The notes beneath the pieces are model-generated. The model did not search any database. It had not been told where the DNA came from and was given only the letters and a program-made list of their open reading frames with translations. From Diploschistes diacapsis (Eukaryota): a stretch of DNA of 37,653 nucleotides. Below are positions 970-13,700 of this stretch, in pieces. A program made the position numbers and the translations under genes. Positions within the stretch are counted from its first letter, which is position 1, and every line of letters begins with the position of its first letter. The DNA lies in assembly GCA_023645945.1 (NCBI GenBank), contig JALAIB010000060.1:1-37653 (forward strand), given 5' to 3'.

Positions 970-2365
970 ATGTCTTCCGCCGATGTTGCTTCCAACTTCT
1001 TGCTATTTTTTACTCCTTACGTTCTTTTGCTTACCCCTCCCCCTTTTACCTCCCCCGTCCTCATTCCCTTCGTCGTCGTCCTCCTCCTTTTCTTCTTTTT
1101 CCGTCAACATTATCTCTGCCGACCTTTCGCCCAGGTTCAGCGGCCCTCCCCCGACTTGGTAGGTATACAACAACGCATTCACTCCCAGGCCGGTCAAGAC
1201 CACATTCGACTTGCGCGTGCCGATGTGGAGGGTCTTTTAAAGATCCTCCAAGATCGCCAAGTCGGTGTGACGGCCTGGGAGAATGAATCAGGTCGGGTTG
1301 CGGAGGAGCCGAACCACTTACGATGCCTAACTAGGATAGGTGACTATGCAGGCTCGATGTACAATCGCCTCGCATCTACCGGTGCTTTCAGCCATCTCCT
1401 TGACAGGCCCAGGCCGAAAGCAACGGATATACAGAAACTTCTAGTAGCTGACCTTGATCCGCCTAGGCGTGAACAGGTTGACTTAGCCCTCGACAAGGCA
1501 GCGAAAGGAGTCAATGTGGATCCTGCGCTGGCACGCCTGGCCATCCAGATATATGCCTCGAGGAACGACGCAAACCACTCAAAGGCCGGGAACGCCAAGT
1601 CCAGCAACGACAACATAGGCCTGCAGCGAGCCATTGCTGAGGACTTGGCGGACCTTCCCGGATTCCTTTCCAGTGAGTTCCTCGAGCATATCGACAAGAT
1701 ACGCCAGTTGATCGTGGAGTACCGGGATTGCGAGGCCGACAAGACCACCGACACGAGTGTGGATGGGGAGAAGGCCAAGGCAAATGACAAGAACAAGCCT
1801 CCGCTCCCCATGGTCTACCGCCTGGACCTTCCCCCATACCTTCGGCCAAATGATTCGAGAGAGGTCTTCGAGCTGGATCCATCGTTCTTCGATGCTGGTA
1901 TGGCTGCTATCCGTGCCAAAACCAGGCCTCGGTCCAGATCGGTCCCTGATCGGTCTGAAAAGTGGGTCAAACAGAGAAGAATCGAGCTCTTCTCTGAACA
2001 AGACCCACTTGTCAAGCGACCGAGGCTTTGGCAGCCAGCTAGTGGAACTGACAAGACCAGATATCCAAAAGCTTGGGACCTGGATCCGGAATACCTTCTT
2101 CAAACCCGAGGACACCAAAGGGTACCTTCGGGAACACGCGAACTTGCGTGAAGGGTTGCAAGCGTTGGTTGACAACACGCAGGACGCGGACAATCAGAAG
2201 CGCCTGCGGAGGCTCTTCCAGGCCATCGTAGACCAGGTCAAGAAGGCGCCTGCCTTATGGCTTAAGCAGGCAGAGAAAGAGGAGAGAGCAGAGGAGAAGA
2301 AGATGAAGGCTAGGGAGGCGAGAGGAACCGGGAATGGAGGAGAAGGTAAGTCTTCTGACCCCTAG
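970..2365 (+). CDS. Lineage-specific hypothetical protein with HEPN-like R-N-x3-H motif; C-terminus continues in a second frame (intron about 1962-2034, or frameshift)
   Basis: ATG at 970 follows a TATA-like ATATATAT (about 887-894) and a CT-rich leader. The frame is open to 2151, with helical, protein-like sequence including LARLAIQIYASRNDANHS. An overlapping frame carries protein-like ELTRPDIQKLGTWIRN...KKMKAREAR to TAG 2365. Confidence 0.65.
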
Positions 2366-2396
2366 TCGCTCTTTATTTGCATTTACTTGCTACCCC

Positions 2397-2473
2397 GGCC
2401 CTGCGACGGAGAGGCACCTTCTCGTGGTGCGGGCTGTGAGTAACGGCAGATGCCGCGAAACCAAGACCTCTCC
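2397..2473 (+). ncRNA. HDV/CPEB3-like self-cleaving ribozyme candidate (nested double pseudoknot, loop-E in P4)
   Basis: P1 GGCCC(T)GC 2397-2404 pairs with GCGGGCT 2429-2435, with a G1.U wobble. P2 GGAGAGG 2408-2414 pairs with CCTCTCC 2467-2473. P3 ACC/GGT closes L3 TTCTCGT. P1.1 is C2421-G2436. AGTA (2439-2442)/GAA (2457-2459) flank hairpin CGGC-AGAT-GCCG. Candidate catalytic C2461 lies in CCAA just before P2'. Confidence 0.72.
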
Positions 2474-2474
2474 T

Positions 2475-4169
2475 TCATAACCTGCGGCTCGGAACGCAAC
2501 CAAAGTTATAGTTTCGCAACGATACAACAGTTTCGCAAGTGCTGTTCAATATCGCCCAAGCCATGGTGTGTTCATCGTGAACTATGCCCTCGGGATATTT
2601 CTTGATCCACATGTCACCGCGCCAGAAACACCTGCAGCCATTGTACGCAGTTTCCTCGAGATCGCTCATATCAGGCACCGACCACCTCTCTGATTCACTG
2701 TCCGACTCGTCGTCTGAGCTAATACGATCTGCATAATCCGGGCTTATCCAGTATTTATCATCCCATTCGCGGACTCTGAGACGTGTCGGTTCAAGACGCG
2801 TCGGTAGGACAATCTCCTGTTCTTCAATCCGCTCCTCATCCTTCTTCAATTTTGTATTATTCTTGTTGTTCCACAATTCGCAATAGCTGCCATATTCGTA
2901 CTGTCGTTTATCTCGGAAGTATTCCCAGCGCCAGCACGCGCTATCTGCTCGACTCTGTGCGGGACAGAAATAAGGAGGATCTTCGTACCAATTCCTATCA
3001 CAAGGGAGGAGTTCTACCTCATCGCACATGCAACTCCTGATCCTATCTCGGGGAGACAGGACGAACGCACAGCAAATGAGTTGTCCTACAAGACCGAAAA
3101 TCGAATGACATCGTGGGAGCCTTTTGTTACAGATGCTTAATGTCTGCATTCTGGTAACCTCGAAGTGCGTCAAGGACGCGAACTGTTCCAGTCTCAGAAA
3201 AGGTGCAGTGGGCGTGTCCAAAGAATGTAGGAGGAAGTGAAAGCGCACTTCACAAGTCTCCAAATCTTCAATATAGTTCCAGTCGTCGAAAGCTTCACTA
3301 AAGGCTTCGCCCCATTTGCACCGCTTGATAGCAGAAAGATTCAGTTCGTCGAGTAGGAGCGTGCATTCATCGTCGAGACCTTGTGGAGCTTGGATTGCTA
3401 TACTACGCACTCGGCGCAAGGGAAAGAGTGCGCATATAAGTAGCGACAAATCAGATACCCTGTCCATCACAATCCAGTCAAGACCTTTGAGACCCGAGTG
3501 TGACAGTGTGAGCTCGCCATTGCTGAACCAGCTGCGGTCCATAGCCTCACGAAAAACAACCTTGACATGCGGAAGCCCGTCTGTGGCTTTTTCAAGAAGA
3601 CGTGCGATCCACCTAAGTCGATTCCGGGTCATGATCAGCTGCGCAGCATCGGTCGGCTCTGGGGCGGGTACTTCGATGCATATCGAACGGAACAGATGAA
3701 GAGGACAGGTCTTCAAGATTGGTAGCTTCAAGTATGCATTCGAGCCAAAAGCGCCTGGCCGCAGAAAGGTCGGCGCAAAGGACTGCACGAAGGTGCCGTA
3801 TTGATCGTGCACGTGAATCGTCGACGGCCATTCTCCCTCTTCAAGCCTGTGCGGAACGAAATCGGGTAGATCAAAAATGAGATCGCGGGTTCTGTAGATG
3901 ACTGAGATGGCTTCTTGTCGAATCTGGCGGTTGATCCTGAAAGCTGGTTGAGCAAGCCACTTTCCCTTTTTTAAATTGTGAGTATCAAGTAAATATTCTA
4001 AGATCTGCATTCGGATCTCCTTAGGAAACTTGAAAAGGCTTATGGAGCTTGCTCGTCTCGACTCTTCATGGTTCTCCCGATCCTCTTTAGTGTAACCCTT
4101 TGGAGCATAACGGTTGGCAAGGAGAGCAAGGATCGACACGCATATAAAAACCATGATGTGGAAACCCAT
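2475..4169 (-). CDS. Hypothetical protein with F-box-like motif near the N-terminus (SLFKFPKEIRMQILEYLL) and Cys/Trp-rich C-terminus
   Basis: Uninterrupted frame of more than 560 codons; first ATG at 4169. An LP.EIR..I..Y-type motif is followed by R.NRQIRQEA..V.Y, as in fungal F-box-like hypothetical proteins. Start codon uncertain. Confidence 0.75.
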   Translation of the reverse strand: MGFHIMVFICVSILALLANRYAPKGYTKEDRENHEESRRASSISLFKFPKEIRMQILEYLLDTHNLKKGKWLAQPAFRINRQIRQEAISVIYRTRDLIFDLPDFVPHRLEEGEWPSTIHVHDQYGTFVQSFAPTFLRPGAFGSNAYLKLPILKTCPLHLFRSICIEVPAPEPTDAAQLIMTRNRLRWIARLLEKATDGLPHVKVVFREAMDRSWFSNGELTLSHSGLKGLDWIVMDRVSDLSLLICALFPLRRVRSIAIQAPQGLDDECTLLLDELNLSAIKRCKWGEAFSEAFDDWNYIEDLETCEVRFHFLLHSLDTPTAPFLRLEQFASLTHFEVTRMQTLSICNKRLPRCHSIFGLVGQLICCAFVLSPRDRIRSCMCDEVELLPCDRNWYEDPPYFCPAQSRADSACWRWEYFRDKRQYEYGSYCELWNNKNNTKLKKDEERIEEQEIVLPTRLEPTRLRVREWDDKYWISPDYADRISSDDESDSESERWSVPDMSDLEETAYNGCRCFWRGDMWIKKYPEGIVHDEHTMAWAILNSTCETVVSLRNYNFGCVPSRRL

Positions 4170-4966
4170 CACGAACCTATCCTGGTAAAGAATATATGAT
4201 TGATTTTCATATCGAAGAAGAAGGTGCAATAAGTATTAAGCCAGAATTTGAATCACGACTACTATGGCCGGTGAGTCATGTGTGCTATAACGGTGAATAT
4301 TGCTCCCTTTGATTTGGTTACCAAGGTATCTAGCTACCACTGCCAGATAATAGAGTTAACGATCTTGTAATGATCGATATCATAATGGAGAAACGGGTTA
4401 AAGAGATGTATCTAGTATCACATCACCACAGTATACAATATTGCTTGTTTTGCCTGCCAAGAAATCCAAAGAGCAAGCACGAGGCCGTTGAACAATACGT
4501 AACGAAGTAACGAACTTGATTCACTCACCGTCACCCTCACTCATCCAAAAGAACCTGCACAACTCCTTGCGGTTGTCCTGGACCTTCGCAATGAACACAG
4601 GGACTAGGTTATAGGACGCTCCTCGATCCCAGACATCTCCACACTGCATCCCGCCCTGGATAGCTTATGCCCGTTACAGCCGATCAAGACAACAGCCAGC
4701 ACCAACATCCTACATCCACGCACACGTCTACATCGATCTATCTAGTGGTATCGACCATAGGAAAGATTGAGAGCTCGCAGGAGATCTGAAATATTGGGTA
4801 ATTGAGAGGTAGTCGTGTTCACACCCCATCATCACCATCCAAGTTAGCCTGCACTCTCCTATCGATGGGGTCGCTAAGAAGTAGATTGATATTAGGCTTC
4901 TTGGCTCCCTAAGAACAACGTCAAAGCCTCTGGCACCTAACTCGCCTCATCGTGGCCGAAGCCAGC

Positions 4967-6903
4967 ATGGCGGCTCGGAGAGTCTCACATCACCTTGTCC
5001 CCACGCTTAGCAACGACGAATCCGAAATCTCATCCGCACCCAGCACTCCGGGCCCCCTCAACGAAGAAGAAGGCGACTTCTTTGTCGTACAGAAACTCGA
5101 GTCTCCATTATCTTCACGCGAAGGCAGCCAACAACCTGCGAACACTCGCCAGCGCCCCAAATACCCAATCGACAACCTGCCCTCCGAACTACTCATACTC
5201 ATACTGGCAAAGCTCAGCTCGCCCCAAGACTTGCTCAACAGTTTGCTCGTGTCAAGAGGTTGGGCAAGATGCTGCGTGGACTTACTATGGCACCGTCCCC
5301 TCTTCTCATCATGGGAAAGGCTATCAATCATTGCGGAGTCAATTCAGAGAGAGGACGCATACTGGCCGTATCAGGATCTGATCCGTCGGCTCAACCTCTC
5401 TAACCTGAGCCAAGAAATCAGTGATGGGACTTTGCAGCCGTTTATCGGTTGCAAAAGAGTCGAGAGACTAACACTTACCGGATGCGAAAAGATTACAGAC
5501 CAAGGCGTAATTGCACTAGTGGAGGGGAACAAGAGCCTTCTTGCATTGGACGTGACTGGAGTCGGCGCTCTCACGGACTTGTCGATTGACGCTCTGGCAA
5601 ACAACTGTACTCGTCTTCAAGGTCTCAATATCACCGGATGCAGGAATGTCACAGATGATTCGCTCGTGCCTCTGGCTGAGGCTTGCAAGTACCTCAAGAG
5701 AGTATGGACGTCCCAATTTTCACCTTAGTCCACACTAATGACCATAGTTGAAACTGAATAAATGCTCAAACGTCACTGACGTCTCGATTGAGGCCTTCGC
5801 TCGTCGCTGCCCTTCCATGCTCGAGATCGATCTTCAAGGATGCGACAAAGTCACCAACTCTTCTATCTCTATCCTCATACAGTCCCTCATGCAGTACGGT
5901 CGCTACCTGAGGGAACTACGCCTTGCTCAGTGCAATCTCATCACAGATCATGCCTTTCTAAATTTACCATCAAGTCTTCGTTGCGACACCCTGCGCATAC
6001 TCGATCTTACCGCTTGTACTCAACTTACCGACTTTGCTGTGGAGAGAATCATCAATGTTGCACCACGATTGCGCATCCTGGTCTTAGCCAAGTGTTCCGA
6101 GATTACCGATCAGTCGGTCTTTGCCATTTGCAAGCTTGGCAAGAATTTACATGACATCCACCTCGGAAGATGCGGCCGAATAACAGACGAAGCTCTGAAG
6201 GAGCTGGTCCGTCATTGTAGCCGTATTCGCTACATTGACCTGGCAGGATGCCTTCTCGTGACCGACAACAGCGTAAGGCTCCTAGCTACTTTGCCCAAGC
6301 TGCGGCGTATCGGCCTTGTCAAGTGCCAGAACATTACAGACAGAAGTATCAAAGCTTTGGCGGACATCGGAGGCTACGACCCCAGAGCTTCCCACCGTCA
6401 CGGCTTCTCAAGCAGTTTGGAGAGGGTTCACTTGAGTTACTGTCTCAATGTTACGATCGGGGTAAGCTAGCTTGGCCTTCCTCCATAGTTGAATGCTTGC
6501 GCTGACATAACGCAGGGCATCCACGAGCTTCTCAACACTTGTCGCAAACTCACACATCTCAGTCTTACTGGGATCCAAGAGTTCTTCTCTCGCGAAGACC
6601 TCGTCAAATTCTGCCGCGATGCGCCTCCTGGTAAGTATCCTTTCTTATCTGCCGCTAGAATTGTCACTGATCACAGTTGTAGAATTCAACGAAGAGCAAC
6701 GTGGAGTGTTTTGTGTTTTCAGTGGCGATGGAGTCAACAAGCTCCGTGACTACCTTAACGAGACCGAGGAACAGCGCTATGCAAACCTCTCTGACGAGAT
6801 GTCTTACGACGAAGACGGCGACAATGAAGACGAAAGCCAAAACACCATTACTGGCCTATTTCAGAACACCGGTATAGGTGGCATGGATGATCTGGATGAA
6901 TGA
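4967..6903 (+). CDS. GRR1: SCF E3 ligase F-box/LRR protein Grr1 (GrrA); exons 4967-5701, 5748-6461, 6516-6630, 6683-6903
   Basis: F-box (IDNLPSELLILILAKL...LLWHRP), Cys-containing LRRs (CKRVERLTLTGC, RIRYIDLAGC, LPKLRRIGLVKC, LERVHLSYC, LTHLSLTG) and the C-terminal EFNEEQRGVFCVFSG motif. Three GT-AG introns (5702-5747, 6462-6515, 6631-6682) join the frames. Confidence 0.96.
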
Positions 6904-11949: not shown

Positions 11950-13700
11950 TTTCGCTTGAAAGAGGAGATGGAGGATGGTTTGTCTTTTCAGCCATTGTCC
12001 CCTATATATGTCCGCTGGTCTTCATCCGAGGGCAAGACGCGGAGAGTTGCAGCGCATACCCACAACATTCCACCAACATTCTGATGCTACTGGTCCACCT
12101 GATGTTTGTTTTCAATTTCTCACTTTTCTGATTCCTGTATCTTTTCCCCTTCTCATCTTCTCTAAGCTTTTTGTTGCATTCTCTCCCATAGTTTGTAATT
12201 CATACTTCAAGTTCAGCCCCGCCTCGCTTTGTATGCCTCTAATATGAGCGAATATGAAATGGTAAAGGGAAGATCTGGAGTTGTTTTGTGTTGCCCTTTC
12301 TGTTGATCCTCGTTGGGCTCCTGTGATTAGCTATTACCGCTTTCATGCTCAAGGTGCTCGATGTGCTCCTGCTTTTTTGCTTCTTTAGATACTCCATTCT
12401 CCTCACCCCCTTCCTGATCCTCGTATTTTTTCGTATCACCAGTAGTCACTATATTCTGCGTCTCGTTTTTTGCTTACTCCGTTTTAGATGCTCACCGAAG
12501 TATTGATACTGCTACATCCTCATTTTTCTTCCATGCCACCTCCAGTCTGTACTACAGTTTTTCATTCTCCTCAATGGCCCTCATAGAACAGGTAACTGAT
12601 TTCATACCTTCATATCTTCTGCGCCTGTGTCATTTCTAACCGAGCATATGATCGCAATTTTCTGGCGGCCGGTCTTTGCCCCTACGGCTATATCCTTATA
12701 CCCTTTCGTGCCGTGCTGCCTTTCCCTCATCTTCTACATTCAAATCTTTTCGGCTTTATACCCTTTGTCATGCCCTGTAGTTCCTTAAGATGTTTGTTGA
12801 CGCGCGGACTACAATCCTACCGCCTTGTCGTGGCGCACATTTGCTCTGTTGACTTTCATAAGGTGGTTCATCGGCTACTAAACATTGGTCATCTGCTCGT
12901 GTTCTGTCGCCTCGTTTCCGACATTTTGTTGACGACGGTCCGCCATCCTGAGGAATAACCAAGTTGTTACAGACTCTCGGTAGATTCTGTACGCAAGATG
13001 ACCAACCGATGATGGAACAGCTTTAGGCAGTAACTTCTGAGCTAAGGCGAAGAGTAAAGGAACATAACGCTGGTAAGCAGCTTGCATATCAACAGTGCTG
13101 GACTCAATCACTCCTTTGATTCGAGGTTGTATATCTCGAATATCTTTCCCGAGAGTTGGCTGAAGAAATAGCCCTGAGCTCCACCTGTTGAAGAAGCTCT
13201 GATATAACCTCCATTCAGTACCTTGGGTATATTTTGTATATACTATTACTCCCGATTGCCTTGCTTAGGTTTAGATTTTCCCTTTCCACTTCGTAACGGA
13301 TGAGGGAAGTATGTTCGGGCCCCTATGCACTCCTCATGCTTTTGTTCTCCATACTCCTCGTTTCCTTCCCTGTTCACATGTGTTTTACTGCTTTCGTATT
13401 TCTTATGTTTGTTGGACTTCTCAACCGACGATTGCTATCTTGAATCCTCGAACTTTCCCTGCTGGCTGTAGCCCCCGTTCTTCACAATCTTTATACTCTC
13501 CATGCTCCTTGTCTCCTCATTCAATGTGCACTCGTTTCTTCTCGTCACCGTCTGCACAGCTCGTCGTGTAGTCTGCGCCATTCCCGTACTTCTTTTAGTG
13601 CTCGTGGTCTTTCCAATTCTTCTCGCTCCTCGTGCTTCTTTTTCCTTGATACTGACAATATTCTTCCTCAACTCTGCACGCCTAATATTTTTCGCCCCTG
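11950..13700 (-). pseudogene. Decayed gene with E/K/H-rich low-complexity repeats flanking a globular segment
   Basis: Strong pyrimidine skew on +. The minus strand reads KHEE/EHGE/EYGE/EHLEHE-type units at 12050-12600 and 13300-13680. An open protein-like stretch runs from about 12880 to 13220 (EWRLYQSFFNRWSSG...AYQRYVPLLFALAQKLL). Confidence 0.4.

Follow-up and report, generated by a model that had tools for sequence, protein, structure and literature searches.

Whether the short gap between two convergent open reading frames (ORFs) on contig JALAIB010000060.1 of the lichen Diploschistes diacapsis holds a self-cleaving RNA is the question that this locus raises. A first-pass annotation, made from the letters alone, had placed a ribozyme of the hepatitis delta virus (HDV) class, with the fold of the HDV and CPEB3 ribozymes, at positions 2397-2473 of the forward (+) strand of the window, by which we mean the whole 37.6-kb stretch of DNA (37,653 nucleotides) that was analysed. 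The gap in which it sits spans 2366-2474 and measures 109 bp, and not the 110 bp given at first. From the evidence set out below we regard it as likely that 2397-2473 (+) is an HDV-class self-cleaving ribozyme of the loop-E variant type found in fungi, including the chemistry that we propose for it. As such, it is an added member of a variant class which has already been described in fungi, and which is missing from Rfam.

Architecture of the element and its resemblance to known HDV-type ribozymes

All elements of the HDV fold are present in canonical order within the 77 bases at 2397-2473 (+), as can be read directly from the sequence, and the parts itemized in the first-pass annotation (P1 with a G.U pair and one bulge, a 7-bp P2, a 3-bp P3, L3, a 1-bp P1.1, loop E, its hairpin and CCAA) were all seen where it had put them. 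The traits of the class that can be recognized include the nested double pseudoknot order, a C-N-R-A J4/2 directly 3' of P4, and a 3-bp P3 closing a 7-nt L3 with conserved U, C and CG, together with P1.1.

Helix P1 comprises seven pairs between its 5' strand, GGCCCUGC (2397-2404; assigned from sequence, descriptor and duplex energy), and its 3' strand, GCGGGCU (2429-2435; sequence and duplex energy), with a G2397.U2435 wobble at the cleavage site and U2402 bulged, and the predicted cut falls between C2396 and G2397. The J1/2 linker that follows is GAC (2405-2407), which is identical in L104 (locus numbers of this kind denote the related loci described in the next section), and it leads into the 5' strand of P2, GGAGAGG (2408-2414), which forms seven perfect pairs with CCUCUCC (2467-2473; sequence and descriptor) in columns that covary in the family. 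An extra C at 2415 lies between P2 and P3 and can pair with G2465; in 42 of the 43 aligned rows the base in this column is paired with the one that follows CNAA. P3 is formed by ACC (2416-2418) and GGU (2426-2428; sequence and family alignment), and throughout the family this helix is either RCC/GGY or GCG/CGC and is 100% paired. The loop that it closes, L3, reads UUCUCGU (2419-2425), a sequence also found in most family members, and its C2421 pairs with G2436 to give a P1.1 of a single base pair; G2436 and the adjoining U2437 (2436-2437) are in every retrieved locus since the search pattern demanded them.

The loop-E 5' strand, G-AGUA-A (2438-2443), which was read from the sequence and corresponds to a variant feature of Li and Breaker (2017), is followed by the distal P4 hairpin CGGC-AGAU-GCCG of 4 bp (2444-2455), whose columns covary in the family, and by the loop-E 3' strand C-GAA-A (2456-2460), such that AGUA (2439-2442) faces GAA (2457-2459) under the hairpin cap and C2456 stands opposite A2443 as a mismatch. 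The J4/2 segment CCAA (2461-2464) contains C2461, the predicted catalytic cytosine, and the GAAAC motif that holds this base is in every retrieved member, as the search pattern required. G2465 and an unpaired A2466 (2465-2466) then precede the P2 3' strand. The first-pass annotation listed a bulge in P2 (A2466, if the C2415-G2465 pair is counted) that could be either a variant feature or early decay. A matching GA before P2', and with it the whole 'C ... G A' arrangement, recurs in L104, L152 and L263, and because of this recurrence we favor the former reading and do not consider the bulge to be damage. The remainder of its list of imperfections was correct as to the bulge in P1, and had missed the A2443.C2456 mismatch.

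The published counterparts of such an element are the 230 HDV ribozyme variants reported from 26 fungal species by Li and Breaker (2017, BMC Genomics, PMC5640933), and that paper bears out the mention, in the first-pass annotation, of fungal variants with a loop E in P4. Relative to the consensus, the variants are there said to have typically a C-G pair at the cleavage site, a loop E in place of part of P4 and one nucleotide more, mostly C, separating P2 from P3, the latter two features being ones that violate earlier search descriptors; constructs from Penicillium chrysogenum and Aspergillus niger cleave in vitro at the base of P1 to give a 2',3'-cyclic phosphate and a 5'-OH (PMC5640933). The candidate is like the fungal variants in its HDV pseudoknot order, in a loop E (AGUA/GAA) at the base of P4, in the extra C and in a fungus-like host, and like them it has a variable gene context and is missed by earlier HDV descriptors and by Rfam. 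It is unlike them in having G.U in place of the typical C-G, a bulged U in P1 and an A.C mismatch flanking loop E. The visible start of their species list names Ajellomyces, Arthroderma and Aspergillus, whereas the candidate comes from a lichen-metagenome organism, and a literature search found nothing joining HDV-like self-cleaving RNA with lichens.

A permissive Rfam scan (region 2330-2540, E up to 10) returned only one HDV-type match, to drz-agam-1 of Anopheles gambiae (RF01787), along with two further matches that are irrelevant. The candidate and drz-agam-1 have in common the P3-L3-P3'-P1' core ACCU.CUCGUGGU and the C-N-A-A J4/2, and P3, L3, P1', P4 and J4/2 are aligned with C2461 in the catalytic-C column; however, the match is local (model positions 21-74 of 82) and the P4 of the model is without loop E. 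With the mammalian CPEB3 ribozyme (RF00622) the candidate shares a 7-nt L3 of the form UUCNCGU, the UUCACGU given for CPEB3 in the first-pass annotation being indeed the Rfam consensus, and P1.1 is a single pair in CPEB3 as well. Unlike the candidate, CPEB3 has a regular P4 helix and is intronic and mammalian, and its model found no match in the window at E up to 10. The HDV ribozyme itself resembles the candidate in its fold, in the G.U at its cleavage site and in the presumed chemistry with a catalytic C in J4/2, and differs in having no loop E, a P1.1 of 2 bp and an L3 of 8 nt; the Rfam HDV_ribozyme model gave no match in the window in the permissive scan.

The generic HDV fold alone is weak evidence, and is within chance for a large scan. 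The descriptor that we wrote for this fold specifies a P1 of 6-7 bp, a P2 of at least 5 bp, a 3-bp P3, L3 as NYCNCGN, a G for P1.1 and CNRA at the junction; it tolerates no more than a single bulge in each of P1 and P2. Its sole match on both strands of the window is 2397-2473 (+). When a relaxed form was applied to 2378 dinucleotide-preserving shuffles of the window it returned 728 loci, or 0.31 per window, among which 55 (0.023 per window) equal the candidate with a P1 of 7 bp and a P2 of at least 7 bp. It is the loop-E core and the evidence from the family that lift the candidate above chance. The minimum-free-energy fold is ordinary on either strand (z -0.94 for +, -0.35 for -), which is to be expected because pseudoknots are outside the folding model, and was not used as evidence.

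A family of related loci and its covariation

The pattern used to search for relatives consists of unpaired core bases only, namely CTCGY, a gap of 9-11, GTGAGTA, a gap of 8-30 and GAAACNAA, amounting to 18.5 specified bases. At least 118 loci in the JGI metagenomes carry it; among the 118 listed, 32 passed the full helix descriptor for P1, P2 and P3, and about 50 show by inspection an architecture like that of the candidate. Two controls were available for comparison. A near-identical pattern found 56 loci in viral contigs, with no passes of the helix descriptor, and the core pattern found at least 116 loci in 185,579 prokaryote species genomes, with 3 passes among the 116 listed, which argues that the linear core alone does not yield the helices. 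Two of these three, L222 and L263, look like real members. That metagenomes appear to contain the family often, and prokaryote genomes seldom, is in keeping with an origin mainly among eukaryotes.

From 35 non-redundant members, candidate excluded, we made an alignment (A1) and built upon it a covariance model with P1, P3 and P4, hereafter R1. A second alignment (A2) holds 43 sequences, candidate included, fitted to R1, with P2 added as a pseudoknot for pair counting. Standard pairs occupy 82.2% of the cells of A2 as against 52.0% in shuffles, a value reached by none of 500 shuffles, and the covariation score of 0.731 compares with 0.221 for the shuffles and with 0.14-0.20 for controls whose partners were slid by 1-3 columns, figures that carry the caveat that A2 was fitted to a model already containing P1, P3 and P4. 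Changes on both sides of a pair occur in 21 of the 22 pairs and in all four helices P1-P4, the pseudoknot included. In members whose J1/2 is long, the candidate among them, A2 also places the P1 5' strand out of register, so that the paired figures for P1 and P2 and the score of the candidate are lowered and not inflated. The check proposed in the first-pass annotation, by covariance models and covariation among relatives, thus came out in two ways: a match at the Rfam gathering score was not obtained, and covariation was found among relatives from metagenomes.

R1, which was built without the candidate, gives it 44.9 bits (E 5.7e-12 in the window), while the next match in the window reaches 7 bits. 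The 43 unique family sequences score 43-75 bits; loci that carry the pattern and are not clear members score 8-26 bits, with L096, L128 and L130 reaching 25.5-33.1. The candidate accordingly exceeds the pattern-matched background by some 12-37 bits, and this excess stems from features outside the search pattern. Conserved positions outside the pattern include the first U of L3, which does not vary among the 35 sequences of A1, and the CC/GG of P3, which hardly varies, and the candidate matches both. The close look-alikes L074, L082 and L104 have C-ACC-UUCUCGU-GGU-G in common with the candidate, and L152 has C-AUC.

The survey also returned some elements that score lower with R1. Nine loci (L066, L069, L075, L091, L094, L099, L117, L121 and L167) have a GUGAGUA...GAAACGAA core in common, with an L3 of UCCUCGC in eight of the nine (L121 has UUCUCGU) and a P1' of GGGGCU in five. 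This subgroup scores 23-35 bits with R1, its P1 and P2 are short or imperfect, and from its sequences it may be a separate lineage of HDV-like elements. A weaker second match to R1, of 28.8 bits, lies at L103:347-456 (-), on the contig and strand of the main ribozyme and about 1 kb away from it. Within the window itself, the matches at 12812-12835 (+), GCCUUGUCGUGGCG, with 7 bits and at 6252-6260 (+), CUUCUCGUG, with 6.4 bits are fragments of the P3/L3 core at chance level, and are not ribozymes.

Descent, activity and competing explanations

The identity proposed in the first-pass annotation, that of a fungal loop-E member of the HDV class, gains support from two features of the published variants (loop E in P4 and the extra C), from the covarying family and from the 44.9 bits awarded by R1. 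Judged by its sequence, the candidate almost certainly belongs to the loop-E HDV-like family by descent. That this particular copy is catalytically active is, by analogy with its relatives, a reasonable expectation and one that we hold with less confidence than membership, because of the U2402 bulge and the A2443.C2456 mismatch.

If the HDV-class reading is correct, the + strand would be transcribed as a 3' untranslated region, or as read-through, of the upstream gene, and the RNA would fold into the nested double pseudoknot formed by P1/P1.1/P4 and P2/P3. C2461 in J4/2 would then serve as the general acid, a role assigned from the established HDV mechanism, while a Mg2+ held by L3 would activate the 2'-OH of C2396. 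A cut of the chain between C2396 and G2397, 31 nt past the stop codon, would leave the upstream RNA with a terminal 2',3'-cyclic phosphate, and the downstream product would be a ribozyme-bearing RNA with a 5'-OH. Cleavage by the HDV class depends on a catalytic C in J4/2 and yields a 2',3'-cyclic phosphate and a 5'-OH, and existing knowledge of HDV-type catalysis is left unchanged by the candidate. The likeliest effect of such a cut would be an upstream mRNA that lacks its poly(A) tail, and read-through RNA that runs antisense to the convergent gene would be detached from its capped 5' portion. We infer this chemistry from the HDV mechanism together with the in vitro cleavage of two fungal variants reported in PMC5640933.

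Several observations count against this assignment. The candidate ranks 42nd of 43 by R1 score, and that score is itself partly circular, the pattern that retrieved the family having been derived from the candidate. Furthermore, the likeness to the fungal variants is one of described features, and the score comes from a surrogate model of 35 metagenomic look-alikes. The candidate has a bulged U2402 in P1, and the A2443.C2456 mismatch beside loop E occupies a position at which 37 of 43 rows have a standard pair, placing the candidate among six exceptions. Its cleavage-site pair is G2397.U2435 and not the C-G that Li and Breaker give as typical. No family reaches its gathering score in an Rfam 15 scan of the window, and in the permissive scan the best HDV-type match, drz-agam-1, obtains 11.7 bits (E 8.2), its gathering score being 37. 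Compared with two relatives, the upstream gene carries a frameshift in this assembly, and as such the host transcript may be defective.

The Rfam result is uninformative, since none of 20 clear family loci attains any Rfam gathering score (the best of them, L098 against the full-length CPEB3 model, has 24.7 bits as against 35), and Rfam 15 is without a model that detects the loop-E HDV variant. As to the cleavage-site pair, the corresponding column shows G.U in 14 of the 43 rows, G-C in 9, A-U in 3, U.G in 1, other combinations in 12 and gaps in 4, some of the rows being mis-registered; L082 carries C-G. The bulged P1 duplex has a calculated energy of -9.5 kcal/mol, the 7th most stable among 44 P1s compared (37 clear members and 7 doubtful or non-family rows, namely L060, L066, L126, L145, L153, L167 and L112, the last with its P1 mis-picked). 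A second P1 register, from G2398, has a C.C mismatch in place of the bulge and amounts to only -4.8 kcal/mol; because this alternative is the weaker, the cut would most likely fall at 2396/2397, with 2397/2398 as a possible alternative.

Comparison with a close relative also touches upon whether the element is maintained. A single contig of the related run X2 (about 96% identical) spans 2097-3040 and shows 35 differences, 31 of them listed. The stretch 2387-2481 contains none of these 31, the flanking ones being at 2362, 2386, 2482, 2495, 2511 and 2513, and the comparison at the ribozyme site rests on X2, the contigs of X3 and X4 not spanning 2223-2551. This is weak evidence of constraint on the element, and it must be set against it that the conservation amounts by our own estimate to a p of about 0.05, that four differences are unlisted and that no compensatory change is seen.

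It is conceivable, if rather unlikely, that the element is a true descendant of the loop-E family which is decaying, that is, a catalytically dead copy without present function. The second-lowest R1 score of 43 would agree with this, as would the two imperfections (U2402 and A2443.C2456) in helices that are clean in most members and the frameshift of the upstream gene in the assembly, and degenerate members do exist in the family, L072 and L157 being without a P1 5' strand. However, the unpaired bases of the core are all intact, P2, P3 and the P4 hairpin are perfect, and P1 remains among the more stable in the family in spite of its bulge. Members which score well, such as L076 (60.8 bits), L087 (59.2) and L112 (55.2), carry a mismatch or bulge in P1 too, no listed X2 difference lies inside the element, and an A.C pair needs only a single transition to become standard and, once protonated, can adopt a wobble geometry. 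An element that is active could alternatively serve to process the 5' end of a mobile element, or of a distinct RNA lying downstream, and not be a feature of the 3' end of the upstream gene. HDV-like ribozymes do occur at the 5' ends of non-long-terminal-repeat (non-LTR) retrotransposons, the ribozymes of L120 and L135 adjoin Exo_endo_phos ORFs, and about four tandem repeats of some 28 nt lie directly upstream of that of L110. For the present copy we consider such a role improbable, as the + strand downstream of the ribozyme has no long ORF and is antisense to a 584-aa ORF with 8 homologues, the Pfam scan found no reverse transcriptase or endonuclease domain in the flanking ORFs, and the R1 scan found no second ribozyme copy in the window.

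Last, ordinary intergenic or 3' untranslated sequence might fit the HDV descriptor by chance, and the permissiveness of the descriptor (0.31 matches per shuffled window, 0.023 as good as the candidate), the unremarkable folding energy (z -0.94 and -0.35) and the lack of an Rfam match at threshold would all be in keeping with this. We find it very hard to credit, given that control loci which share the core rarely form P1-P3 (0 of 56 viral, 3 of the 116 prokaryote loci listed), that the candidate stands about 12-37 bits above such loci and matches conserved positions outside the pattern, and that both published hallmarks (PMC5640933), loop E and the extra C, are found in a fungus-like genome.

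Neighbouring genes and the contexts of other members

The sense-strand gene upstream of the ribozyme (913-2365, +) is present as two overlapping frames, 913-2151 and 1757-2365, with 31 nt between the end of its stop codon and the cleavage site. The convergent ORF of 584 aa (2475-4229, -) has its stop codon at 2475-2477, 2 nt past the 3' end of the ribozyme. A Pfam scan found no family in either of them; the homology search returned no homologue of the upstream protein besides itself, and 8 unnamed homologues of the 584-aa protein with 37-42% identity. Other proteins of the window are eukaryotic and fungus-like, and include SNF2/DUF3535 (Mot1-like), F-box/LRR, Sen15 and protein kinase matches in Pfam. 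The base at 2096 is absent in contigs of the related runs X2 and X3, where a single ORF of about 484 codons results, which suggests that the copy of the upstream gene in the window is either frameshifted or contains an assembly error.

Given this arrangement, it is tempting to postulate a ribozyme-based 3'-end and insulator device between convergent genes, and with it a loop-E HDV subclass that extends beyond fungi; at this time we regard the proposal as speculative and doubtful. Were such a device real, the mRNA would end in a cyclic phosphate 31 nt after its stop codon in place of a poly(A) tail, and read-through would be cut before it became antisense to the neighbour, whose stop codon lies 2 nt past the ribozyme. 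What prompts the idea of a subclass extending beyond fungi is a core with covarying helices on metagenome contigs, where it adjoins endonuclease ORFs of the retrotransposon type, a bacterial-type sigma-70 gene and tRNA arrays. Li and Breaker's paper (PMC5640933) speaks of widely variable gene associations for the fungal HDV-like variants. A ribozyme with an intact core that follows a stop codon by 31 nt and directly adjoins a convergent gene is a convenient case in which to test the setting of mRNA 3' ends or the blocking of read-through, by virtue of that very position. In addition, the recovery of dozens of members with nothing more than a short core pattern and a helix check suggests that the loop-E subclass is probably under-annotated.

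The contexts of the other family members are heterogeneous, in agreement with the variable associations reported in PMC5640933. A general rule whereby a same-strand ORF ends just upstream was rejected, such an ORF (at least 90 aa, ending within 150 nt upstream) being present in 4 of the 18 family loci whose upstream flank measures 1 kb or more. Synteny was likewise rejected, the ORF upstream of the L074 ribozyme being unrelated to the upstream ORFs of the window and the convergent ORF of L110 unrelated to the 584-aa ORF. Neither the window nor 45 of the 47 family loci that were scanned have a tRNA adjoining the ribozyme, and as such a role like that of theta ribozymes is not indicated. The two remaining loci, L102 and L118, have tRNA arrays 370-620 nt from the ribozyme. 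In both (L102:244-329, -, and L118:871-955, -) a loop-E HDV core with a long P4 lies on an AT-rich metagenome contig inside a same-strand tRNA array (Met, Met, Glu, Glu, Ala) with an RNA-ligase ORF nearby, a context which, to judge from gene content, appears phage-like or bacterial-like rather than fungal.

Exo_endo_phos ORFs, which encode an endonuclease of the retrotransposon type, adjoin the ribozymes of L120 (140-1399, +), where the ORF is upstream of the ribozyme and scores 36 bits, and of L135 (731-1138, +), where it starts 9 nt downstream of the ribozyme and scores 22.3 bits, under the Pfam cut-off. This suggests that some family members are part of non-LTR retrotransposons. At L110:1566-1700 (-), the approximately four tandem units of about 28 nt (CCTGTCCTACCGAAAGGTTGTGAGAGC) are directly upstream of the cleavage site, and at least the last copy is also found in L108.

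L222 and L263 are clean members on contigs filed as prokaryote assemblies, L222 being an 8,967-bp contig of a metagenome-assembled genome labelled Oceanobacter sp., and they may represent either contamination of the bins by eukaryotic DNA or copies that are truly bacterial. L124:1480-1547 (+), on a metagenome contig of 130 kb, is a family-like ribozyme of 43.4 bits in which the parser found no P2, and a complete sigma-70 ORF (regions 1.2, 2, 3 and 4) lies about 157 nt upstream of it; from this neighbourhood, the loop-E HDV subclass may also occur in bacteria.

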